Shown here: piece by piece, positions 22,650 to 52,065 of the stretch
Numbering within the stretch: position 1 is the first letter of the stretch
Layout of the letters: every line of letters begins with the position of its first letter
Origin: Candidatus Iainarchaeum sp.
Lineage (GTDB): Archaea > Iainarchaeota > Iainarchaeia > Iainarchaeales > DTGL01
DNA length: 64,000 nt
Assembly (NCBI GenBank): GCA_026413945.1
Contig: JAOAJX010000004.1
Span: 1 to 64,000, forward strand
Direction of reading: 5' to 3'
Program-made: the position numbers and the translations under genes
Notes under the pieces: model-generated
The model's database searches: none
The model's input: the letters and a program-made list of their open reading frames with translations, nothing else
Told to the model about the DNA's origin: nothing

Positions 22650-22737
22650 GGGCCTGTAGCTCAGTTGGATAGAGCACCGACCTCCTAATTTCAAAGGAGT
22701 TAGTCGGGTGTCGGGGGTTCAAGTCCCTCCGGGCCCG
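22650..22737 (+). tRNA. tRNA-Arg(CCT) with 14-nt intron (22688-22701) at position 37/38
   Basis: Cloverleaf; anticodon CCT at 22684-22686; intron GGAG pairs with CTCC, forming the BHB helix. Confidence 0.92.
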
Positions 22738-29746: not shown

Positions 29747-32620
29747 CTATTCGATATATATTGCTGGCTTGAATGGCATTGCGTCTTTTGCTTTGCTTTT
29801 AGGATCATATTCTACCTTATCTTCAAGTTGCACAATAACATCACATTCAAAAAGCCCTGAAAGGAAGTCCTTTGATGCAGCAAGTATTTTCATTTCATCT
29901 ACAGGCACCATTTCCCTAAGCTCGCTCCACTTTGCTAAGAGCTTTTTTATAATGTTTACAGCATATTGCCCTTTTGCTTTTATTGATTCGTCACTCATAG
30001 CAATCCTTATAGCACTACTTTGGTCCGGTATTTGGAGTTTTTCCTTGAGAAGGCCAAATAAGTTTCTTTTCCACTCACTGCAAACATAGATATAAATCTT
30101 TTTTGGCTTATCAATCTTTGCAAGCTTTTTTATTTCATTCAAATCATCAACAATGTTGGCAACGATACTCTCTGCAGCGCTGATCTTTTGATCTGTCTTT
30201 AGCTTTTTTGGAATTCTTGCGAAGAATATTGAGCTCCTGTTGCCTAGCTTTTGCCAAAGCTCCTCTGCTAGGTGAGGCATAAATGGAGCGATACAAACAG
30301 CCCAATTGCTCAAAAAATAATACATAAGTTGCTTATTATACTTATTTTTTCTATGCTCATACCAGTTAAAATCCTTCAGAAGCTGGAAAGATATGCACTG
30401 TAGAGCTCTTCTGAACTCCATTTTTTCCATTGCCTGGACATATTCATTTATGCGCTCATTTATCCTATTGTAAAACCACTTTTCTGGAAGGTTCAGCCCC
30501 TTAATTTTACCCTTTTTGGCTTTTGACGCATTTCTGAAAAGCAACTCTACAAAAGAATTCAGTTTAGAGAAGCTCTTTTCAATCTCCCTTTGCTGCCAAT
30601 TTAGTTCTTCCCATGGTTCAACGATATTCATTAGGAAAAACCTGACGAAGTCGGCACCTATGGAGTCACATAAGTCATTTATAAGAACAACGTTGCCTTT
30701 GGATGATGACATTTTTTTACCTTCAAGAACAACCATGCCTAGGTTAAGTGTTCCTTTTTGTCTTTTATTTGGTGGGAAAATCGCAGTGTGTTGGAAAATG
30801 GAAAAAGACATGTGATTTGGTATTAGCTCAATAGCACTCACATTATACGCCAAAGGATACCAATATTTGAATGAGTCATGCATTTCCTTGAGAACACTCT
30901 TTTTAATCCCATATTTTTTTGAGATCTCAGCTATTCTTCCCTTACCAAGAAAGATGTAATCAAATACTTCTGGCTCAAGCTTTTCTGCGGGCACCTGTTT
31001 TATTATGTTTGCAATAGTAAAATAAGCCATATAAATTGTTGAGTCTGCAAGCGGCTCTAGTATTAACTCTTTTTGGAATGGAAAGTTTGTTCCGAGCCCC
31101 TTAGATCTTGTACACGGTTTGTCATCAAGCCACTCGAAGACCTTCTCATAATTTATCTTGAAAAGTGCTGGCACTATTTGCATTCCTGACAAGGTTTTCT
31201 TTGATTCCTCCTTCCACCTTTCATCAGAATATTTCACAAACCATTGATCTTCTAAAACGCGCACCACACACTGAGAACCACACCTGCACACAACCTTCCC
31301 TTCAAGCTCATAAAAAATAGCTGCTTGGTTTTTTTCTATGAGCTCTTTTTTAACTAGCTCTTTCGCCTTATTTACTTGCATACCCGCATATTTGTTACAA
31401 TTGCTGTTCATGATTCCTTTGTGGAATCCGAGCTTGTAAACAGTTTTTTTTGCTTCTTCGAGTTTTTCAGCATCAGATTGGCTTTTTATTCCCAAATCAT
31501 TGCAAATCTTCACCGCTGATAGATTTCCATAGCCTTCAAGCTCTATTATTGGAATTGGCTTTATTGAAGTAAGCAAATCGTAATTTAGACCAAAGCTTTC
31601 AGCCAAAGCTTGGTTTTGCTGCAATTCTCTTAGAGCGATGTAATCTATTGGTGCATCACTCGGTACTGATGTTACAATGCCTGTGCCTGTTGCAGGATCA
31701 CAAAAGTCTGCTGGGAGAACAATAATGTTCCTTTCAATACCGGGTGCAAGCACCTGCCTGCCAACAAGCTCAGAGCCATTTAAAGTACCAACTTTCTCTA
31801 TATCCTTAACTTGTTCTTTGTACTTGTCGAAAAACTCTTTGCTTGCAATCCATTGCTCAGCCCCTACTTTTACCTTCGCATATTCAATATCTGGCCTAAC
31901 CCAAAGATTTGTTTGGCCAAAAACTGTTTCTGGTCGAAGAGTTGCAGCAATCAAATAAGTATTCTCATCGAGCTTGAACTTAAGCAAAGTATATTCCTGT
32001 ATGCCGAGGCCTTCGCCTTCGCTAAGGTCATGATCACCAACAGGATTCTTGCACTGTGGACAATATCGCACAGGATAAGCCTTCTTTATAATATATCCTT
32101 TTGATGCAAGTGTCTTGTATTGCCATTCTATAAAGCGCTTATATTGAGGATCTATCGTTTTAAGCTCACGCCTCCAATCAATGCCAAGGCCTAATTTCTT
32201 AAAACCTGCTTTATATCCATATTTTGCTTTGTTTATCATATAATCAACGAAGCTTTCTGGGCTTTCCGTAAGATATTTGAAATCTTCTTTTGGAATCCTT
32301 GCATTCTCATGGAATATTTTTATTGTTTTTTCATTTCCTTTTTGCAATGCTTCCACTGCAGCAATGACAGGAGTGCCTGAGACGTGCCATCCCATAGGCA
32401 TTAGCACATTAAATCCAGTAAGCATCTTGTACTTTGCGGCTACGTCCGTTGCGGTATATGTGCGTGCATGTCCTATATGCATAGCACCACTAGGATACGG
32501 ATAAGCTACTTGAATGTAAAAAGGCCTTTTTCCCTTTTTTATCTCTGGCTCAAAAACCTTATTTGAAGACCAAAATTTTTGCCATTTTTGCTCGATTCTT
32601 TTAAAATCCAAAAAGATCAC
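29747..32620 (-). CDS. leuS: Leucine--tRNA ligase (archaeal type)
   Basis: YPYPSGAMHIGH, ATLRPET, TGIVTSVPSDAP, KMSSSKGN, terminal PFKPAIYIE. Confidence 0.96.
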   Translation of the reverse strand: MIFLDFKRIEQKWQKFWSSNKVFEPEIKKGKRPFYIQVAYPYPSGAMHIGHARTYTATDVAAKYKMLTGFNVLMPMGWHVSGTPVIAAVEALQKGNEKTIKIFHENARIPKEDFKYLTESPESFVDYMINKAKYGYKAGFKKLGLGIDWRRELKTIDPQYKRFIEWQYKTLASKGYIIKKAYPVRYCPQCKNPVGDHDLSEGEGLGIQEYTLLKFKLDENTYLIAATLRPETVFGQTNLWVRPDIEYAKVKVGAEQWIASKEFFDKYKEQVKDIEKVGTLNGSELVGRQVLAPGIERNIIVLPADFCDPATGTGIVTSVPSDAPIDYIALRELQQNQALAESFGLNYDLLTSIKPIPIIELEGYGNLSAVKICNDLGIKSQSDAEKLEEAKKTVYKLGFHKGIMNSNCNKYAGMQVNKAKELVKKELIEKNQAAIFYELEGKVVCRCGSQCVVRVLEDQWFVKYSDERWKEESKKTLSGMQIVPALFKINYEKVFEWLDDKPCTRSKGLGTNFPFQKELILEPLADSTIYMAYFTIANIIKQVPAEKLEPEVFDYIFLGKGRIAEISKKYGIKKSVLKEMHDSFKYWYPLAYNVSAIELIPNHMSFSIFQHTAIFPPNKRQKGTLNLGMVVLEGKKMSSSKGNVVLINDLCDSIGADFVRFFLMNIVEPWEELNWQQREIEKSFSKLNSFVELLFRNASKAKKGKIKGLNLPEKWFYNRINERINEYVQAMEKMEFRRALQCISFQLLKDFNWYEHRKNKYNKQLMYYFLSNWAVCIAPFMPHLAEELWQKLGNRSSIFFARIPKKLKTDQKISAAESIVANIVDDLNEIKKLAKIDKPKKIYIYVCSEWKRNLFGLLKEKLQIPDQSSAIRIAMSDESIKAKGQYAVNIIKKLLAKWSELREMVPVDEMKILAASKDFLSGLFECDVIVQLEDKVEYDPKSKAKDAMPFKPAIYIE

Positions 32621-35295
32621 CTGTTTGTAGAAAAGTAAGCCCTTATCTTTTCACCGTCTGCTGTACCAATCGCCATACGGTCATTTCCACCGCCTTTGCC
32701 GTTCAATGTTGCCAATACTTCCTTAAGCAACTCTGTTGCTTTTTTGTTTGATTTCTCACCGCAAAAAACAACGATGTCTTTGCCTGAGCCAAGAACAAGC
32801 GCAATATCAGGTCTCTTTGACATAACATAATTGCCTATCTCAATAAGTGTTTTCTTTTCTGTATCATCAATAAAAAGCTTAACAATAGGGCCTTTTTCTG
32901 AAATCAAAGACCTGCCAATTATAGAAGCGCTTCTCTCTGTCATCAAATCAACCTTTTTCCTAAGCTGCTTCCACTCAGAGAAAAACCTTTCAACTGCTTT
33001 TGGAAGCTCATGTGGTTGTACAGATATCTTGGCTGCGGCTTCCTCAAGTATTGCTTCTTTTTCTTGAACAGTCTTTAGGGCTTCGGGACCACAAACAAAT
33101 GTAAGGCGCTCTATGCCGTCTTGAACACTTTCGCGCTTTATTATCTTAAAGAATCCGATCTCTGAAGTTCTCAATGCATGTGTGCCCCCACATGCCTCAA
33201 CATCAACGCCGGGTATTTCTACAATCCTAAGCTCTTTACCAGGGACATAACCACCTTGGTAAAGCGTAAAGCCATATTTTTGCTCTGCCTTGTTTCTTGC
33301 CATGAAAAATGTTCTAACAGGAATGTTAGCAAGCACGAGTGCATTTACCATCTTCTCTAACTCTTTTATTTGCTCTTTAGTAATGCGTTTGTAGTGAGTC
33401 ACATCTAAATGCGCTTTATCCACATCTTTTTGTGCACCTGCTTGCCAAATGTGCATTCCTAGAAGCTTTTTACAGCATGCATTTAAAAGGTGGGTTGCTG
33501 TGTGGTGTCTCATAAGCTGCTTACGTCTTTCCATATCAATTGTAGCAGAAACAATATTTCCTATCCTAAACTTTTCTGGTTCTGAAACAGTATGTAGAGT
33601 TATTCCATTAATCTTCTCAACGCACACGACAGGCACTCCGCTTATTTTGCCCAAATCATGTGCTTGTCCACCTGAAGTGCCATAAAAAGCAGTCTGATCC
33701 AAAATGAGTTTGTTACCTTCTTTTCCGATAACTTTTGCTTTAAAGTTACTAAGCATTGGTTCTTTATAATATAGTTCTTTTGTCTTAGGATACTCTCTAG
33801 AAAGCGCTGTTTTTTGTTCGCTTGAAATTGCTTTTTCGTTTTTCTTGGCAATAAGATAATAGAAGTTTTCTGGAATCTCTATCTTCAGACCCTTCTTTGA
33901 GGCTTCTCTTTCAATTAGTTCTGGTGCAATGCCATTGCTTTCATATAGCTTTATCAGTTCTTTTTCAGTAATTATGTCACCCTTAGCGGCCTTATCAACA
34001 ATGTTGGCAATTATTTGCCCTGCCTTTGCGCGCAGCTCCTTATTTTTTTGTTCTTCCTCTGAAATTATTTCAACAACTGAACTGACACCTGCGCTCAATA
34101 AAGGATCAAGGCTTTTTAAAGCTATTGCATGTTTTTCCAAAAGACCTGGAACATCTAGCTTAAGATCATACTCTTCGTTGAATGAAAAAACACGTCTCAA
34201 CAAAATCCTTAGGTTATAGCCTCCACCCGAATTACTTGGAAGCATTCCATCAGTAATTGCATATAATAGTGCCTTAAGATGGTCAGCACAGGCATATAAC
34301 GCTTGCACAGGCCTGATTGATTCGTCAAAATCTTTTTCTTCAAGCCCTATGCTCTTAAGTATCTGAGATCTTTTTTCCCTCAGATTACCCTCTTCTATAT
34401 TTAGCGCACCGCCAAGCTTAGCATATAGAGCAAACTTCCTTGAGTCATATCTCAAGCCAGAGTCAGAAAACATCTTTTTTAGAACATCTTTGAAGACAAC
34501 ATCATAACTTGTTGGTGTTCCGTTTGTGTACCATGCCAGTCGCTCAAGGCCTGCGCCCATATCTATTACTTTTGTTTTAAGCTCTTCATAACCAGCGTTA
34601 GTCTCTCTAAATTGCATGAATACGCAATTACCAAGCTCAACTCCATTAGCAAGATATTCCATGCTTGGGCCGAAAGTGCCTCCACCTGCCCAAACATCCT
34701 CCATGAAAACAAGCTCCTGTTTTGGTACGCCTATAACCTTTGTAAGATAATTAAAGTCATGTTCCAAAGCTTCATTTTTCCAATAGAAAAGGCCTGTTTT
34801 TTTGGAATTAAAAGCGTGTTGCCCAAACATTATAAAGGCTGAATAATGTTGACCTGTTGCACCAACATTCTGAAGATCATTGAAACGCAAGCATGGTTGT
34901 GGTACAACTAAGGGATTTGCCGGCGGCTCAAGTTCACCACTAACAACATATGGCTGAAAATCAATTATTGAGGCATTAGTAAAATACAAATCATCTCGCC
35001 ATCGAGCAACCACGGGATAACGAGCAATGCTTTTATGACCATGTCTTACAAAGTAGCGTTCTATTGCACGCCATGTTTCGACATAACTATAACCTTTTGT
35101 TTTTTTTCCAATGAAGCCAAAACTTGAACAACTCGAATCAGCACATGATTTTCTCTCAGGGTTCAAACTCCAAAAAAATCGCCCGCATTTTTCACATTTT
35201 AGTCTAACGAAGCCCATCTCCTTGAGAAAAGGCACTTTGTAATGCTTTTCCCATTCTTTAGAAAATTGCTCGCGTAATTCTTTTTTATCAGCCAT
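32617..35295 (-). CDS. alaS: Alanine--tRNA ligase (archaeal type)
   Basis: RYPVVARWRDDL, DMGAGLER, HHTATH editing motif, EACGGTH, DHHA1 GKGGG. Confidence 0.96.
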   Translation of the reverse strand: MADKKELREQFSKEWEKHYKVPFLKEMGFVRLKCEKCGRFFWSLNPERKSCADSSCSSFGFIGKKTKGYSYVETWRAIERYFVRHGHKSIARYPVVARWRDDLYFTNASIIDFQPYVVSGELEPPANPLVVPQPCLRFNDLQNVGATGQHYSAFIMFGQHAFNSKKTGLFYWKNEALEHDFNYLTKVIGVPKQELVFMEDVWAGGGTFGPSMEYLANGVELGNCVFMQFRETNAGYEELKTKVIDMGAGLERLAWYTNGTPTSYDVVFKDVLKKMFSDSGLRYDSRKFALYAKLGGALNIEEGNLREKRSQILKSIGLEEKDFDESIRPVQALYACADHLKALLYAITDGMLPSNSGGGYNLRILLRRVFSFNEEYDLKLDVPGLLEKHAIALKSLDPLLSAGVSSVVEIISEEEQKNKELRAKAGQIIANIVDKAAKGDIITEKELIKLYESNGIAPELIEREASKKGLKIEIPENFYYLIAKKNEKAISSEQKTALSREYPKTKELYYKEPMLSNFKAKVIGKEGNKLILDQTAFYGTSGGQAHDLGKISGVPVVCVEKINGITLHTVSEPEKFRIGNIVSATIDMERRKQLMRHHTATHLLNACCKKLLGMHIWQAGAQKDVDKAHLDVTHYKRITKEQIKELEKMVNALVLANIPVRTFFMARNKAEQKYGFTLYQGGYVPGKELRIVEIPGVDVEACGGTHALRTSEIGFFKIIKRESVQDGIERLTFVCGPEALKTVQEKEAILEEAAAKISVQPHELPKAVERFFSEWKQLRKKVDLMTERSASIIGRSLISEKGPIVKLFIDDTEKKTLIEIGNYVMSKRPDIALVLGSGKDIVVFCGEKSNKKATELLKEVLATLNGKGGGNDRMAIGTADGEKIRAYFSTNR

Positions 35296-35357
35296 AATTA
35301 GGAATATTTACCTGCAAAATAATAAAATACTTTTTCAGAACTGCTTTTTTAATCTTT

Positions 35358-35365
35358 GTTAAAGT
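35358..35365. repeat. Left 8-bp target-site duplication GTTAAAGT
   Basis: Identical to 39173-39180; both abut the TIRs. Confidence 0.9.
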
Positions 35366-35386
35366 GGTTCTGTTAACTTAATGTTG
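35366..35386 (+). repeat. Terminal inverted repeat GGTTCTGTTAACTTAATGTTG
   Basis: Exact reverse complement of 39152-39172. Confidence 0.92.
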
Positions 35387-35426
35387 ATGAATTAAACATT
35401 AAAATTTTCATTTTATTACCCCCAAT

Positions 35427-35651
35427 TTAGTCAGAATTAACAGCTTGGAATTTGGTTGCTTTTTGTATCATACATTTCCAATTCTCAACTTCGATATCCA
35501 CTCCAGAGATTTTAGCTGGAGTATTACCATTAAGACTTTGATGAGGTCTTAAGAAGTTATAAAAGACAAACCAACCATCAAGAAATGTTTGGGCTGTTTC
35601 TTGTTTTTTCAATCCTCGCATCGGTTTAAGCCTGTCCTTAAGTGTTCCATG
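35427..35651 (-). pseudogene. DDE transposase C-terminal remnant (IS6-like)
   Basis: HGTLKDRLKPMRGLK..FLDGWFVFYNFLRPHQSLNGNTPA; frame closed by a stop just upstream; ends 40 bp from the TIR. Confidence 0.78.
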
Positions 35652-35801
35652 AAACGAATACTAGTAAGCCTTCCAGATGGGGCATGGAAATTTATCGAGA
35701 AAAAACTAAAGGGCAAACTCGGTGACAAAGAGTCAGAATTAGTTAGAAACATCGTTATCGCTTACTTGTCTGAAAAAGGCTATTTTGAAGATGAGAAATA
35801 G
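35649..35801 (+). CDS. Small ribbon-helix-helix (CopG-like) DNA-binding protein
   Basis: MKRILVSLP beta strand then ..ESELVRNIVIAYL helices; 50 aa. Confidence 0.6.
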   Translation: MKRILVSLPDGAWKFIEKKLKGKLGDKESELVRNIVIAYLSEKGYFEDEK

Positions 35802-35802
35802 C

Positions 35803-35979
35803 ATGGTTGACAAAGAGATCAAAGAGGTAAAAGAAGATATAGAAACTCTTGAGAACATGTTCTCTGCCTTAGTACACATTCTAGAAAAAAAGAAAATACT
35901 TTCTGATAAGGAACTTGACGAACAAATAAAGAGAAGAATTGATAAAGATAAGAAATTAAAGAAATTTGAAGATCTTTGA
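35803..35979 (+). CDS. Small charged coiled-coil hypothetical protein
   Basis: MVDKEIKEVKEDIETLENMF..; follows RHH stop; its own stop abuts the attC-like site (track ORF starts 35785). Confidence 0.55.
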   Translation: MVDKEIKEVKEDIETLENMFSALVHILEKKKILSDKELDEQIKRRIDKDKKLKKFEDL

Positions 35980-36120
35980 TTAACTAATTAGTTCTGAGAA
36001 GTTTGCGAAGCAAATTTCCCCCGAGCCCAATATTTCATGATTAAATTATATATTGGCGAGGGGCGACTGAACGAGCTCTGTAAGAAGCGAGTGAAGGAGT
36101 CAGAACGAGTGTTAGTAGAC
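35978..36120. other. attC-like structured recombination site
   Basis: TAAC(35981-84)-N6-GTTCTGA(35991-97)...TCAGAAC(36100-06)-N4-GTTA(36111-14); internal hairpins TTTGCGAAGCAAA and CCAATAT/ATATTGG. Confidence 0.6.
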
Positions 36121-36353
36121 CGAGTGAGATTGAAGCGTTTAGCAGAATGTCTGAGCGAGGCAAGGAGCTTCGAAGAAGCGACGAAGCGTTGCTGGCGATC
36201 ATTTGGGGCGCCGTGGTTTGCTCCAGTTCAATATAGAAGCAAATCTCGTTTAACCATAGTTCAACGAAATAGCCAGCCTCGCCTTTTATAGAGACTAAAT
36301 GAAAGCCACCTCTCACTAAAAAGTTAATAAATATTATTAGATTATCTTAACAT

Positions 36354-38153
36354 ATGAAAAAAGCATTTGTCTGGGATCCTGTGATGAGATCTTCAGCAAT
36401 AAAATACGATCCTTGTATATTATTAAATGGAAAAATATGTAAAACTAAATGTGATAATTGCAAAATTACTCTTATCGCAGATAGGTTTTTAGGTAAAGAA
36501 TTCCAGCAAGAGATACTTGGAAAAATTGGTGGGAGCAAAGGAAGATACCCGTATGTTATTATCGCCGATAGTTTAGGTTGTAATCTGCATTGTTGGTTCT
36601 GTTACGCATATAAATTTCTTACAAAAGAAAGTGCAGAAGCAAATAAATGCGACATAGCTTATGTTTCTCCTAAAGAACTTGCAGAACAATTTGGTTGCAA
36701 AATCAGAAAATTAGCAGACTTTCAAGAATTACTCAGAGTTGTTGAATCAAAGAATCTCAACGAACAGGTAAAAAAAGCGGCAATTAAACATTTACAGATG
36801 AAATTACCTTTAATGAGGATCAGATTATCGGGTGGTGAACCAACATTCTCAACTAAAGATACATTGTTTGAACCTCAAGATGAAAATCTAATCAAATCTA
36901 CAGTTATGTATTGGCTCTCTTTTTTTAAAGAATTGGATAAAATTATTGGTCTTTTAAAAAAAGATGGAAAATTAAATATTGCCAATAAAATGGATGTTAA
37001 AAATAAAGAGTGGAAAGGAGATTTACCGTTTCCTACATGTCTTGGAGAAAGAGAAGGAAGATTGAATATAAGATACGACACAAATGGTATCATATTTGGC
37101 AACAAAGAAATTACCAAGATGTTTATCGGTGGACTTTTTAAATTATTCAAACAAAATAAGCTAAATCATATATTCATAGAATTTGATTATTCTTTTAAAG
37201 GTGCGACACCTGTTGAATACGAATGGTCTCAAAGGAGAGGTTTACCAGTTGACGCTTCAAAAATCTCTTTTGATTATAAATTAAAAGAACACCCACAAAT
37301 TCCTGGTTATCTAAATATAATCAAAACTATTACTGAGCATTGCAAAAAAGATGTAGAGTTTAATAATTGTGCGGGTATTACTGTAGAAAGAGGTATAAAC
37401 CACAACAAAAGTTTTAAAACATACCTGAATTGCAAAGAATCACTTAATTGGGAAAATTTTTCTAAAAAAAGTAGAATTCGATTCTCAGTCGTAGATAATC
37501 CGATAGAAATGTTTAATTGGAGAAATTATACGCCTAAAAGCTGTTTTATTAAGAACGGTGCGAGCATCAAGGTAATATCAGGAGAAGCAGAATTTGATTT
37601 GAAAAATTGTCCGGATATGAACAAATTTTCTGAATTTGTCCAGAACCATCCAAATTGTTACTTTGTAATATACCCAGTTGAGACCAAAGTTAATCTTCAA
37701 AAAATTACAAAAATAGGAAAAATAAAACTTGATTCTTCCCAAACGACATTAATAGACATGCAGTTTTCTGGTTGGGTCTTTTCTGGTACTAAAGAAAATT
37801 GGAAAATTGCATTGGAAAAAAGAAAGTGGGGTGTTAAGGAAAAAAACCGTTCTCTTTGGCAAAAAATAAAACCTGGGGATATTGTATTATTTTATGTTAC
37901 TACCCCTATAAGTCGAATTATGGGTTTTGGAAAAGTTAAAGAAACTTCTGAAGAAAATTCCCTTTTGTGGCCAGATGAAATAAAAGAGAATAATCTAAAA
38001 TATCCACTAAGAATAATTTTTGAAGAGATGAAATGTATTGAAGATTGGGAAAATGGTGTAAAACCTTTTGGTTTAGAAATAAAACACGGCATAAATCAAG
38101 TTAACAATTATAAAACATTCGAAAAAATAGTCAATACTTTTAGAAATGAATAA
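36354..38153 (+). CDS. Radical SAM protein fused to a C-terminal EVE domain
   Basis: ADSLGCNLHCWFCY, RLSGGEPT, YDTNG; C-terminus ENWKIA..WG..IKPGDIVLFY..GFGKV..WPDE..YPLRI. Confidence 0.82.
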   Translation: MKKAFVWDPVMRSSAIKYDPCILLNGKICKTKCDNCKITLIADRFLGKEFQQEILGKIGGSKGRYPYVIIADSLGCNLHCWFCYAYKFLTKESAEANKCDIAYVSPKELAEQFGCKIRKLADFQELLRVVESKNLNEQVKKAAIKHLQMKLPLMRIRLSGGEPTFSTKDTLFEPQDENLIKSTVMYWLSFFKELDKIIGLLKKDGKLNIANKMDVKNKEWKGDLPFPTCLGEREGRLNIRYDTNGIIFGNKEITKMFIGGLFKLFKQNKLNHIFIEFDYSFKGATPVEYEWSQRRGLPVDASKISFDYKLKEHPQIPGYLNIIKTITEHCKKDVEFNNCAGITVERGINHNKSFKTYLNCKESLNWENFSKKSRIRFSVVDNPIEMFNWRNYTPKSCFIKNGASIKVISGEAEFDLKNCPDMNKFSEFVQNHPNCYFVIYPVETKVNLQKITKIGKIKLDSSQTTLIDMQFSGWVFSGTKENWKIALEKRKWGVKEKNRSLWQKIKPGDIVLFYVTTPISRIMGFGKVKETSEENSLLWPDEIKENNLKYPLRIIFEEMKCIEDWENGVKPFGLEIKHGINQVNNYKTFEKIVNTFRNE

Positions 38154-38159
38154 ACTCAT

Positions 38160-38299
38160 GGCGGCGGCTTCAATATAAATTAAATATAGCCAGCAATGTC
38201 TACTAACAACTATTAAGTGAAATAAATATTCGCTTTATAGTATGAAGAAGTATAAAAAGCGAGATTTTATATAGTCCGTCTCAATAATGTCTCAATAAT
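38160..38299. other. Cassette right boundary / attI-like and integrase promoter region
   Basis: GTCTACTAACA (38198-38208) is the reverse complement of 36110-36120; IR TCGCTTT..AAAGCGA at 38230-38262; tandem GTCTCAATAAT x2 at 38278-38299. Confidence 0.5.
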
Positions 38300-38305
38300 A
38301 AATTT

Positions 38306-39115
38306 ATGACGAACGAGAGCAAGATTTATTCTCCAGAAGAGAGGTATAAACTGATTGGCAAGCTGATTGAAGAAATAAAACTCAGAAGATATTCTTTTCA
38401 AACTGGAAAATCTTATATCTCTATTGCAAAAGACTTTCTGGCGTCAGGAAAGATACCAAGAGAATTTTTGCTGTCTTATACAAACAAAAGCAAATCTGCA
38501 ATGAGGTTTGCCTATTTTGCTTTGAAGTTCTTTCACGAGAATATTCTGAATGCTAAATTCGGGGAAAAGTTGCCGCTTGCCAGAAAATCCATGAAATTGC
38601 CGTTAGTTTTAAGCAAAGAGGAGGTAATCAAAATGATTAACGCCACAAATAATTTGAAGCATAAGCTTGTTATTATGTTTCTCTATTATGCTGGCTTGCG
38701 TCTGAATGAGGTAAGAAATCTCAAATGGGAAGAAATTGATTTTGGCAGAGAGATAATACACTTAAAAACTGCAAAAGGAGATAAGGAACGAATAGTATTT
38801 CTTAATAAAAAACTGACTTATATGCTGAAAATGTATGGAATTAATGAAGAAGGCTTGATTTTTGTTTCTCAAAAATTGGGAAAATACAACAAGAGGACAA
38901 TCCAGCAAATTGTCAAATCCTCTTCCAAGAAAGCAGAGATAAAGAAGAAAATTACACCACATACGCTGCGGCACAGCTTTGCGAATCATCTATTAGAATC
39001 TGGCGCCGATATTCGATACATTCAACATCTTTTAGGCCATAAAGATTTGAAAACAACGCAAATCTACACTCACGTTGCGAATAAGGACATAAAGAAACTT
39101 GCAAATCTGCTTTAG
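38306..39115 (+). CDS. Tyrosine recombinase/integrase with short SAM-like N-terminal domain
   Basis: GLRLNE (R), KGDKER (K), HTLRHSFA (HxxR), LLGH, TQIY; N-terminal LRRYS.QT.KSY. Confidence 0.92.
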   Translation: MTNESKIYSPEERYKLIGKLIEEIKLRRYSFQTGKSYISIAKDFLASGKIPREFLLSYTNKSKSAMRFAYFALKFFHENILNAKFGEKLPLARKSMKLPLVLSKEEVIKMINATNNLKHKLVIMFLYYAGLRLNEVRNLKWEEIDFGREIIHLKTAKGDKERIVFLNKKLTYMLKMYGINEEGLIFVSQKLGKYNKRTIQQIVKSSSKKAEIKKKITPHTLRHSFANHLLESGADIRYIQHLLGHKDLKTTQIYTHVANKDIKKLANLL

Positions 39116-39151
39116 AATTTTAGAAAACATTTACTAAAAACAAATATTGAC

Positions 39152-39172
39152 CAACATTAAGTTAACAGAACC
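39152..39172 (-). repeat. Terminal inverted repeat (right)
   Basis: CAACATTAAGTTAACAGAACC, reverse complement of 35366-35386. Confidence 0.92.
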
Positions 39173-39180
39173 GTTAAAGT
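39173..39180. repeat. Right 8-bp target-site duplication GTTAAAGT
   Basis: Identical to 35358-35365. Confidence 0.9.
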
Positions 39181-39185
39181 CTAGC

Positions 39186-39782
39186 TTAAGAAGCATATTT
39201 CAGTACTACTAAACAACACTCTTGTTCTCTAAGCAGCTCATCTTCGAGGCATTTGCACTTAAAGGAGCCACTATCCATCCATTCAGGCTTTATATCCCGA
39301 TAAAGTGTCTCTTCCAAGTATTTATAAAGGCCTGTAGCCGTTGCTCCGCAAATAACTGACACACTAACTTCTTTCTTATCTAAATTATATCTTATTAGAG
39401 AGCCATCTTCATATGCGCTCCAAGACTTTGAGGGCTTTTCCACCCTACCAAATTCTGTTTCGTCCATATAAACGCCTGGACTCAAGCATATTTGCTTAGA
39501 CTCTATTCCAACATCAGAATTACCCAAAATTGCCTGTGTTGTAATAGTAATATAGCCATCCCTCTTTGAAAAAACTATCTTGCCAGATAATGGCGTTGAC
39601 TTAGACTTGTGGGCATTGTTAAGCACTTCTGCGATTATTTTATTTGGCTCGGAAGTTGAGGGGGGTTTAATTAGACCTAAAATATACAAAAGTATTGTCA
39701 ATATGGCCAGAGCAATTATGGCCGATATAAGAAGTTGAAATGTTGAAAAGGATTGTCCCCTATAATTCATCACATCACCCAA
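39186..39782 (-). CDS. Class III signal peptide (pilin-like) protein
   Basis: RGQSFSTFQLLISAIIALAIL prepilin-type N-terminus; Cys-rich C-terminus. Confidence 0.6.
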   Translation of the reverse strand: MGDVMNYRGQSFSTFQLLISAIIALAILTILLYILGLIKPPSTSEPNKIIAEVLNNAHKSKSTPLSGKIVFSKRDGYITITTQAILGNSDVGIESKQICLSPGVYMDETEFGRVEKPSKSWSAYEDGSLIRYNLDKKEVSVSVICGATATGLYKYLEETLYRDIKPEWMDSGSFKCKCLEDELLREQECCLVVLKYAS

Positions 39783-51918: not shown

Positions 51919-52065
51919 GCCGGGATGGCAGAGCGGCCCAATGCGCCAGCTTGGAGTTCTCCAAATTCTTTCTTTTTATAAAAGAAAGAAAATTTTTAAT
52001 CACGAAGATAAGACCAATGAGCTGGTGTGCGCAAGCACTCGTGGGTTCAAATCCCACTCCCGGCG
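51919..52065 (+). tRNA. tRNA-Ser(GGA) with 63-nt intron (51957-52019)
   Basis: GCCGGGA/TCCCGGC acceptor stem, CCAGC-TTGGAG|intron|A-GCTGG, long variable arm, BHB helix TTGG/CCAA. Confidence 0.9.

Follow-up and report, generated by a model that had tools for sequence, protein, structure and literature searches.

The window analysed here is a 64,000-nucleotide stretch of a contig (C16, JAOAJX010000004.1) from the archaeon Candidatus Iainarchaeum sp., whose 0.95-Mb genome has 37% G+C, is 92% complete and carries archaeal housekeeping genes. Between the gene for alanyl-tRNA synthetase (32617-35295, minus strand) and a small open reading frame (ORF) with the gene for ribosomal protein L10e (39186 onward), it holds a 3.8-kb segment bounded by terminal inverted repeats (TIRs). 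From left to right, this segment contains the remnant of a transposase gene, two small ORFs, a long imperfect palindrome, a cargo gene, a conserved leader and a gene for a tyrosine recombinase (Table 1). We consider it probable, with roughly three chances in four, that 35366-39172 is a transposon between inverted repeats of the IS6 family that carries an integron-like platform for gene capture. We hold with equal confidence that this platform follows the logic of integrons, with an Xer-like recombinase, an attI-like site about 100 bp upstream of it and cassettes each ending in an attC-like hairpin site.

Table 1. Features of the element and of its insertion site, in window coordinates (an arrow marks the putative crossover)
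Feature	Start	End	Strand	Basis or remarks
Target-site duplication, left copy GTTAAAGT, 8 bp	35358	35365	.	Matches right copy; empty site in G002 and in a metagenome contig
Left TIR GGTTCTGTTAACTTAATGTTG, IS6-family type, GG tip, CTGTT motif	35366	35386	+	Perfect 21-bp inverted repeat with 39152-39172
C-terminal remnant (76 aa) of an IS6-family DDE transposase	35427	35657	-	rve_3, weak DDE_Tnp_IS240
Putative truncated distal cassette, two small ORFs	35589	35979	+	Ribbon-helix-helix-like, 50-70 aa (35589/35649-35801); coiled-coil-like, 64 aa (35785-35979)
attC-like hairpin site of cassette 1	35978	36120	+	R box GATTAA↓C ... R box GTTAGTAGAC; L stem GTTCTGA/TCAGAAC
G+C-rich (45-50%) outer arm of the site, CGAAG/GCGAAGC mini-hairpins	36121	36330	+	Similar extensions after sites in L078, L098, L100 and L101
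Cargo: 599-aa protein, CxxxCxxC radical-SAM-like N-terminal part, C-terminal EVE domain	36354	38153	+	Profile matches
Proximal end of cassette 1, R-box remainder GTCTACTAA (38198-38206)	38154	38206	+	Putative crossover between 38206 and 38207 (AA↓C)
Conserved leader, attI-like insertion site	38207	38305	+	Arms, third repeat, TATA-like AAAGCGAGATTTTATATA (38256-38273), tandem 11-mer
Tyrosine recombinase, 269 aa, distinct Xer-like clade, without IntI insertion	38306	39115	+	Profiles, alignments, tree
Right TIR	39152	39172	-	Perfect 21-bp pair of left TIR; related repeats in other loci
Target-site duplication, right copy, 8 bp	39173	39180	.	Repeat of left copy

The recombinase gene is uninterrupted and its product gives a Phage_integrase match of 146.9 bits. 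The protein is collinear with archaeal XerA over about 200 residues, including the HxLRH, LLGH and IYTH motifs, and XerA also provides its best matches in the PDB (4a8e, 131 bits) and in NCBIfam (the equivalog model NF040815). Its score with the latter, 196.2 bits, lies below the cut-off of 220; a separate, true XerA encoded on contig C11 of the same genome reaches 277.4 bits. With the two integron-integrase models it scores 176.7 bits (TIGR02249, cut-off 265, in a match broken into two stretches) and 114.4 bits (NF011946, cut-off 435). The IntI-specific domain around patch III is absent, 18 residues of the query (176-193) standing opposite 63 residues (179-241) of VchIntIA/IntI4 (2a3v). A preliminary description made from the letters of the window had already proposed an intact recombinase distinct from standard IntI, devoid of its insertion and preceded by an inverted repeat and a tandem 11-mer, as well as a palindrome with outer TAAC/GTTA and inner GTTCTGA/TCAGAAC boxes separated by 6- and 4-nt spacers and a cargo bounded by complementary 11-mers. 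All these elements are indeed present, the palindrome with all its boxes spanning 143 nt.

In the genomes of the same genus (n = 6), the only matches are 36-41% identical to this recombinase, and 58 of the 61 genomes searched have a match, all those outside G000 being 33-43% identical. The protein database contains many 269-aa proteins with 68-85% identity in Pace-, Woese-, Aenigmat-, Nano-, Bilam- and Altiarchaeal records. The clade of the recombinase (24 of 46 rows) is monophyletic in a quick maximum-likelihood tree, with an SH-aLRT support of 100 and with phyla intermixed on short branches; the XerA proteins of the order form their own group (15 rows, support 99), and IntI1 remains unresolved at the base on a long branch. 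L152 and L157 were left out of this tree because their recombinase genes are frameshifted. The recombinase gene is thus supernumerary, has spread horizontally and is not the XerA of its own genome; its clade is a tight one (56-85% identity), extending over metagenome-assembled genomes of DPANN and other archaea. A scan of viral contigs retrieved a single relative, with 33% identity, and a search of plasmid proteins yielded Xer-like matches of at most 40% identity and no IntI. Genes annotated as 'xerA: site-specific tyrosine recombinase/integron integrase' on Clostridium plasmids (H9, H11 and H31) are 31-37% identical to the recombinase, which shows that this NCBI model gives the XerA name to genes of bacterial plasmids as well. 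Clade recombinases with arrays are also found in records titled 'uncultured Methanosarcinales' (L090, L091, L123, L125, L131-L135, L137 and L140); their A+T-rich, DPANN-like context suggests that these bins may be mislabelled or mixed.

An inverted repeat of 11-9-11 architecture, CTATTAAGTGA (38210-38220) and TCGCTTTATAG (38230-38240), lies in the leader just before the gene, together with two tandem copies of the 11-mer GTCTCAATAAT (38278-38299). Among relatives, 80 loci were fetched and 70 analysed (55-85% recombinase identity). Of the 28 loci with a match reaching upstream of the gene, 25 begin to resemble the window at 38202-38205 and the other three at 38192-38195; beyond this boundary the DNA is unrelated between loci. 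Contigs end within 400 nt upstream of the recombinase gene in 28 of the 70 loci and within 400 nt downstream in none of them. Neighbouring genes are conserved on neither side, the largest common cluster among 560 flanking ORFs from 71 loci being shared by five loci. The expectation expressed beforehand, that about 100 bp upstream would be conserved up to the TAAC core and then give way to variable DNA, in homologs without fixed neighbours, is thus borne out. The leader is itself a minimal hairpin of the same design as the array sites, recognized by a strict scan in 21 of 57 loci, compared with 2 of 57 shuffled sequences and 2 of 70 downstream stretches. By virtue of its sharp boundary and of the junction rule set out below, it resembles attI as a primary insertion site beside the integrase gene with a fixed crossover.

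The arrays of the related loci contain a recurrent type of hairpin site. On the recombinase-sense strand its consensus reads AATTG-N5-AAC-N3-4-[L stem]-GAAGT-[hairpin 1]-ATTTGG-[hairpin 2]-[L' stem]-N-GTTA, over a length of 77-197 nt, and it combines an R box of the AAC/GTT type, a covarying L stem of 11 bp and a pair of apical hairpins. For an alignment, 23 sites were chosen on the upstream sense strand by their perfect L stem of 10 bp; 96.7% of its cells are paired, as opposed to 75.9% after shuffling (none of 500 shuffles as high) and 29-48% when the partners are slid. Compensatory changes affect 9 of the 11 L-stem pairs and 4 of the 8 hairpin-1 pairs. The sites contain 46 G.T pairs and 2 A.C pairs, a bias that designates the recombinase-sense strand as the one that folds. 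This strand also carries loops of the GCGAAGC type, which are unusually stable DNA mini-hairpins. Predicted single-stranded folds of the relatives' sites have z scores of -4.2 to -6.5, so that they behave as imperfect palindromes with R and L boxes able to fold as single strands, the window's own site being a weak case. A generic scan for AAC...stem...GTT gave 498 and 476 matches on the two strands and was evidently too permissive; it was used for picking candidates only. By contrast, the covariance model R1 found 51 matches in 727 kb searched on both strands. Within the 70 loci, all 47 R1 matches lie upstream of the recombinase gene and in its sense, a compartment that represents 13% of the space, and 24 of them are outside the training set; the 369 kb downstream of recombinase genes contain none. 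The recombinase gene therefore stands beside the array with its 5' end facing it. L101, for example, has five sites plus the attI-like one, spaced by 631-1361 bp.

A second regularity links each site to its neighbour. Circular cassettes opened at AA↓C should leave the outer half of their R box at the next junction toward the recombinase, and we accordingly compared the 7 nt after the GTT of a site with the 7 nt before the AAC of that junction, scoring complementarity. It averages 4.76 of 7 and reaches at least 5 of 7 in 29 of 42 junctions, most of the 'next junctions' in this test being the leader site. A site's own flank gives 2.75, and random flanks 2.43 (sd 0.21, maximum 3.12 in 2000 draws). 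In addition, an identical left half is joined to the attI-like site in L078/L079 and L121, and to another site in L079 and L147. Such complementarity is the static footprint left when circular cassettes are inserted at AA↓C. The cassettes carry small ORFs of diverse kinds: 16 of the 20 scanned have Pfam matches, which include methyltransferase, isochorismatase, serine hydrolases, HNH, HIT, glyoxalase, phosphatases and others. Most of them (44 of 62) read away from the recombinase.

The window fits this scheme with one complete cassette, cassette 1, which spans 35984 to 38206. The boxes of its site are GATTAAC (35978-35984), GTTCTGA (35991-35997), TCAGAAC (36100-36106) and GTTAGTAGAC (36111-36120), and between the inner boxes it carries the family motif GAGAAGT-TTGCGAAGCAA-ATTT, forming hairpin 1, and a second hairpin at 36019-36063. 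The predicted single-stranded fold of 35975-36122 pairs the outer and inner boxes and leaves two apical hairpins, the same topology as in related sites; on the plus strand it amounts to -16 kcal/mol with z = -2.65, a value matched by 2 of 200 shuffles, and on the minus strand z = -1.77. The window's site is a degenerate member of the hairpin-site family. The 11-mers at its outer edge (TGTTAGTAGAC, 36110-36120) and just before the leader (GTCTACTAACA, 38198-38208) are reverse complements without any mismatch, each present in a single copy in the genome, a local case of the junction rule in which GTCTACT (38198-38204) complements AGTAGAC (36114-36120) at 7 of 7 positions. Exact inverted pairs of 11-mers are not rare, several others being present in the element and first-order Markov resamples averaging 7.2 11-mer windows, and the weight of this pair lies in its location. 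A DNA search with 35960-36340 in 60 relatives gave no match. The cargo protein scores 25.2 bits with EVE, 51 bits with PRK00809 and, weakly, 17.3 bits with the PADLOC model pVip (viperin-like), and its radical-SAM-like part carries CNLHCWFC. It has just 19 relatives in 5.8 billion proteins, some of them with Radical_SAM, including proteins of Archaeoglobus neptunius and Aenigmatarchaeota; this rare fusion could be an enzyme of defence or nucleic-acid modification. The two small distal ORFs, which abut the transposase remnant, have no Pfam, NCBIfam or PADLOC family above threshold, and the ribbon-helix-helix reading of the first was made by eye only.

The preliminary description had inferred cassette capture at folded single-stranded sites by a recombinase clade other than IntI; our analysis supports this interpretation, the computational checks that it suggested having given the predicted outcomes. 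We can propose how such a platform would operate. A cassette would be excised as a circle, and the recombinase-sense, or 'bottom', strand of its site would form a hairpin that includes R and L boxes. The recombinase would then join this folded site to the attI-like site at AA↓C (38206/38207 in the window), leaving the outer half of the R box at the junction nearest the recombinase and the remaining hairpin at the far end of the cassette. This scheme takes the clade recombinase as the likely catalyst of cassette recombination and single-stranded DNA as its probable substrate; we also infer that the copy in the window may still be active.

The IS6-type terminal repeats around the whole unit are new with respect to the preliminary description. 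IS6-family elements are characterized by GG tips, a cTGTt motif and 8-bp duplications (PMC7986276), and the element of the window has short TIRs with GG tips, the same motif and a duplication of 8 bp. It does not have an intact DDE transposase (DDE_Tnp_IS240), only the C-terminal remnant, which scores 27.3 bits with rve_3 and 18.4 bits with DDE_Tnp_IS240 (PF13610), below the cut-off of 27. Transposition would probably have been driven in trans, by a full-length IS6-type transposase of the same community with GGTTCTGTTAAC... ends. The last ~65 aa of this remnant alone align to full-length relatives of about 380 aa, which contain SWIM, InsA-type zinc ribbon, DDE_Tnp_IS240 and rve_3 domains. G002, the closest relative (88-93% identity between proteins), has an empty site, with the flanks about 31 bp apart and no counterpart of window positions 35336-39183. 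The same end repeat adjoins a transposase remnant in G002; the DNA of the window's remnant is 82% identical to this copy and 87.5% identical to that of L121.

The same ends recur in other elements. A complete insertion sequence (IS) of the IS6 family is present in G003 (L055, G003:C7, 826-1739), with 914 bp, a 292-aa transposase, ends starting with GGTTCTGTT and an 8-bp duplication (TGGTTAAA). An element of 1261 bp in G005 (L070, G005:C78, ~1501-2761) has the same IS6-type ends and the duplication GTTTAACC(A), and contains one AlkD-like ORF of 244 aa and one hairpin site, which directly abuts the inner edge of an end repeat, without transposase or recombinase; its appearance is that of a single-cassette, gene-only derivative. 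The layout of L121 is that of the window, TIR, transposase remnant, site, cargo, attI-like site, recombinase and TIR, with the left repeat and remnant 2.9 kb upstream and a different cargo in between. Homology to the window extends to 39167-39172, the outer end of the IS repeat, in seven loci, and about 8-12 of the 70 have a TIR-like sequence after the recombinase gene. All four insertion targets, in the window, G002, G003 and G005, contain TTAA, which suggests a target preference. A search for inverted repeats around the full-length transposase relatives found no common ends, L055 excepted. The ends were also considered as a lox-like attP of the recombinase, with two inverted arms and an 8-bp spacer; this was rejected because the same ends flank the complete IS with its own 8-bp duplication in G003 and adjoin the transposase remnant in G002. 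As a separate observation, the inner part of the IS end repeat (39152-39162, CAACATTAAG) resembles the core of the leader site (38207-38219, CAACTATTAAG).

Public data for this locus consist of one sequencing run (X1) containing the stretch, available as Logan contigs. One contig joins 35357 to 39173, omitting 3815 bp, with 8 shared letters, as expected for an empty site, and the depth of the left flank (19.2) approximates the sum of the empty-site contig (8.4) and the element contigs (9.7-11.5). Two other joints, 37960 to 39105 and 38490 to 39059, involve the multi-copy recombinase gene, being internal to it or ending there, and were left uninterpreted.

Several observations weigh against the gene-capture platform that we favour. 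The window has a single complete cassette, whose ORF points toward the recombinase, the minority orientation, and the distal unit lacks a hairpin site, no partner R box (GTTAATCAAA) being found to its left. Recurrence and covariation had been anticipated for the palindrome, and the site type does show both in relatives; the window's own site is too degenerate to reach significance with model R1 (11 bits, E 0.43), and its L stem has only 7 bp. Because the sites were chosen by their perfect L stem of 10 bp, the pairing figure for that stem is inflated, and the unbiased part of the covariation therefore consists of the hairpin-1 result and the conserved flanks. Adjacency is not universal, since 12 of 151 genomes from the order contain sites but, in their assemblies, no clade recombinase, and pseudogenes occur among the clade members (L098, L106, L121, L141, L147, L152 and L157). 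All relatives are contigs of metagenome-assembled genomes (MAGs), in which mis-binning and repeat-induced assembly errors are possible. The empty-site joint comes from one contig whose short side has just 22 letters at 90% likeness, in a run that may be the very sample from which the window was assembled, and it therefore counts as supporting rather than independent evidence; no joint between 38206 and 35984, indicative of a circle or deletion, appears among the X1 contigs, which cannot show rare forms. Finally, because the insertion by which IntI contacts extrahelical bases is absent, a hairpin mechanism cannot be assumed by homology.

These observations have to be set against what other explanations would require. 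One could see in the locus a mere IS6-derived transposon with passengers, whose recombinase would resolve cointegrates at the upstream repeats, in the manner of TnpI acting on the IRS of Tn4430; palindrome and 11-mer would then be incidental. The element does have TIRs, an 8-bp duplication and an empty site, and the leader has an inverted repeat and a third repeat directly upstream of the gene, in a putative likeness to TnpI and IRS. IS6-family elements do transpose through cointegrates (PMC7986276). However, most clade members have the leader and arrays without any IS repeat, and neither multi-site arrays, nor the junction rule, nor contig breaks exactly at the leader boundary are predicted by resolution of cointegrates. 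We deem this explanation improbable as a whole, even if the roles of resolvase and cassette-capture enzyme are not mutually exclusive. That the enzyme is a chromosomal Xer-type protein resolving dimers, or belongs to an element integrating at a dif-like site, with upstream variation due to genome flux, seems less likely still. The best structural and NCBIfam matches are to XerA and the leader has the 11-9-11 repeat, but the genome already possesses a XerA above the curated cut-off, the gene is missing at the same site in the closest relative and has no close ortholog in 60 relatives, its clade is separate from the XerA of the order, and ordinary flux leaves oriented hairpin arrays unexplained.

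We would grant just as little credit to a standard integron, in which ordinary attC sites would be served by a canonical IntI encoded elsewhere and the Xer-like gene would be a bystander. CALINs, attC clusters without integrase, are reported for Nanoarchaeota and Aenigmatarchaeota (PMC9668308). Some R boxes do resemble RYYYAAC/GTTRRRY, such as GCCTAAC/GTTAGGC in L078. Yet none of 196 genomes of the order has a protein above the integron-integrase cut-off, in a search for which the 14 control genomes provided no positive control, and all integron-integrase matches in the order are split at profile positions 182/237. Moreover, the cassettes insert at a site that is conserved together with the clade recombinase gene, and the site architecture, with its three-way junction, spacers of 3-4 versus 1 nt and GTTAT... 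cores, is unlike that of attC. The least probable explanation, in our opinion, takes the hairpin elements for structured RNAs or repeats akin to miniature inverted-repeat transposable elements (MITEs), unrelated to recombination. Covariation, G.U pairs and GNRA-like loops would equally suit an RNA transcribed from the recombinase-sense strand, but no Rfam family matches, and this explanation predicts neither flank complementarity to the next junction nor identical half-sites with different partners.

A structured RNA had in fact been considered for the G+C-rich region 36000-36320 of the window, which has no Rfam match either at the gathering threshold or at E values up to 10, nor does its counterpart in G002; this reading was dropped after the junction rule had emerged. 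The RNA of the signal recognition particle lies elsewhere in the genome (C11:130521-130789). RNase P RNA (RF00373) has no match in the 92%-complete genome, so that it could not serve to exclude 36000-36320 in the same way; it is either very divergent, located in a gap or absent. Elsewhere in the window, Rfam detects two tRNAs with long insertions that ARAGORN did not report, at 22650-22737 and 51919-52065 (a 16-nt insert in one, 147 nt in total for the other), which are probably intron-containing genes. Next to the element, a 198-aa ORF (39186-39782, minus strand) with a hydrophobic N-terminal segment and no family match may encode a pilin-like surface protein; it also lies beside L10e in G002, with 78% DNA identity.

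Taken beyond this window, the data lead us to lean, by a modest margin over even odds, toward the existence of a second integron lineage. It would combine an Xer-like integrase without the IntI domain and long sites with three-way junctions, would have spread by horizontal transfer between DPANN archaea, Thermoplasmatota and other archaeal groups, in some cases carried by IS6-type transposons, and would supply the missing enzyme behind many integrase-less archaeal attC-like clusters; the IntI insertion would then not be required for the recombination of hairpin-site cassettes. Integron biology has been built on one integrase family defined by an extra domain, and surveys rely on this domain and on one attC model. 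In archaea, 539 attC sites have been counted but only six IntIs, all six with the additional domain, and the attC clusters mostly lack an integrase (Ghaly et al. 2022, PMC9668308). These figures leave open what moves archaeal cassettes, and the clade recombinase, placed at the insertion point, is a concrete candidate. If this proposal is true, it becomes possible to test how hairpin sites are recognized in the absence of the IntI helix, gene-capture platforms that escape current tools are revealed in DPANN archaea, whose small genomes depend on acquired genes, and the transposon-borne mobile integrons of bacteria gain an archaeal counterpart. The literature consulted, a part of PMC8371274 included, contains no account of this recombinase clade or its sites, nor of an Xer-like integrase associated with cassette arrays; CALINs of the same MAGs may figure in Data S1-S4 of PMC9668308, which could alter the novelty of our proposal.

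Comparison with known mobile systems helps to place the element. Mobile insertion cassettes are IS derivatives that carry genes alone, and the G005 element, with the same ends as the window's element around a single AlkD-like gene and one hairpin site, is comparable to them. With the IS6/IS26 family, the element shares the GG tips, the CTGTT motif, the 8-bp duplication and relatives that have DDE_Tnp_IS240 transposases; it differs in its size (3.8 kb versus 0.8-0.9 kb), in having no working transposase and in containing a second recombination system. Only one IS6-family member with a passenger gene is reported in the part of PMC7986276 consulted. Archaeal XerA, which acts at dif (4a8e, 5hxy), is the best sequence match of the recombinase, collinear over about 200 residues and with common catalytic motifs, but the recombinase falls below the equivalog cut-off and belongs to a distinct clade that is patchy, horizontally spread and attached to cassette arrays. 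The TnpI/IRS system of Tn4430 likewise has a tyrosine recombinase with a site of about 100 bp made of inverted and direct repeats directly upstream, inside a replicative transposon; here, by contrast, there are arrays of hairpin sites and cassette junctions, and most copies lie outside any transposon. The class 1 integrons in Tn402-type transposons offer a close parallel, with a platform between transposon inverted repeats, a decayed transposition module, movement as a unit and a target duplication, whereas the present element has IS6-family ends, an 8-bp duplication, a 76-aa transposase remnant and a DPANN-type archaeal host.

The likeness to integrons themselves concerns the whole organization: a tyrosine recombinase gene at the edge of the array with its 5' end facing it, an insertion site just upstream of the gene, cassettes made mostly of one small ORF that points away from the integrase and, after it, an imperfect hairpin site whose outer boxes are AAC/GTT and whose inner boxes are paired, a crossover in the AA↓C (G↓TT) core, a folded strand antisense to the cassette ORFs and a varied accessory cargo. 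The differences reside in the enzyme, which lacks the IntI insertion and scores below both integron-integrase models, and in the sites, which are longer (77-197 nt), contain a three-way junction (GAAGT-hairpin-ATTTGG-hairpin), an 11-bp L stem and asymmetric spacers of 3-4 and 1 nt, and include an attI-like site that is itself a small hairpin of array-site design. From its sequence, the system thus appears to work like an integron, with a recombinase that falls outside IntI on both marks of membership tested.

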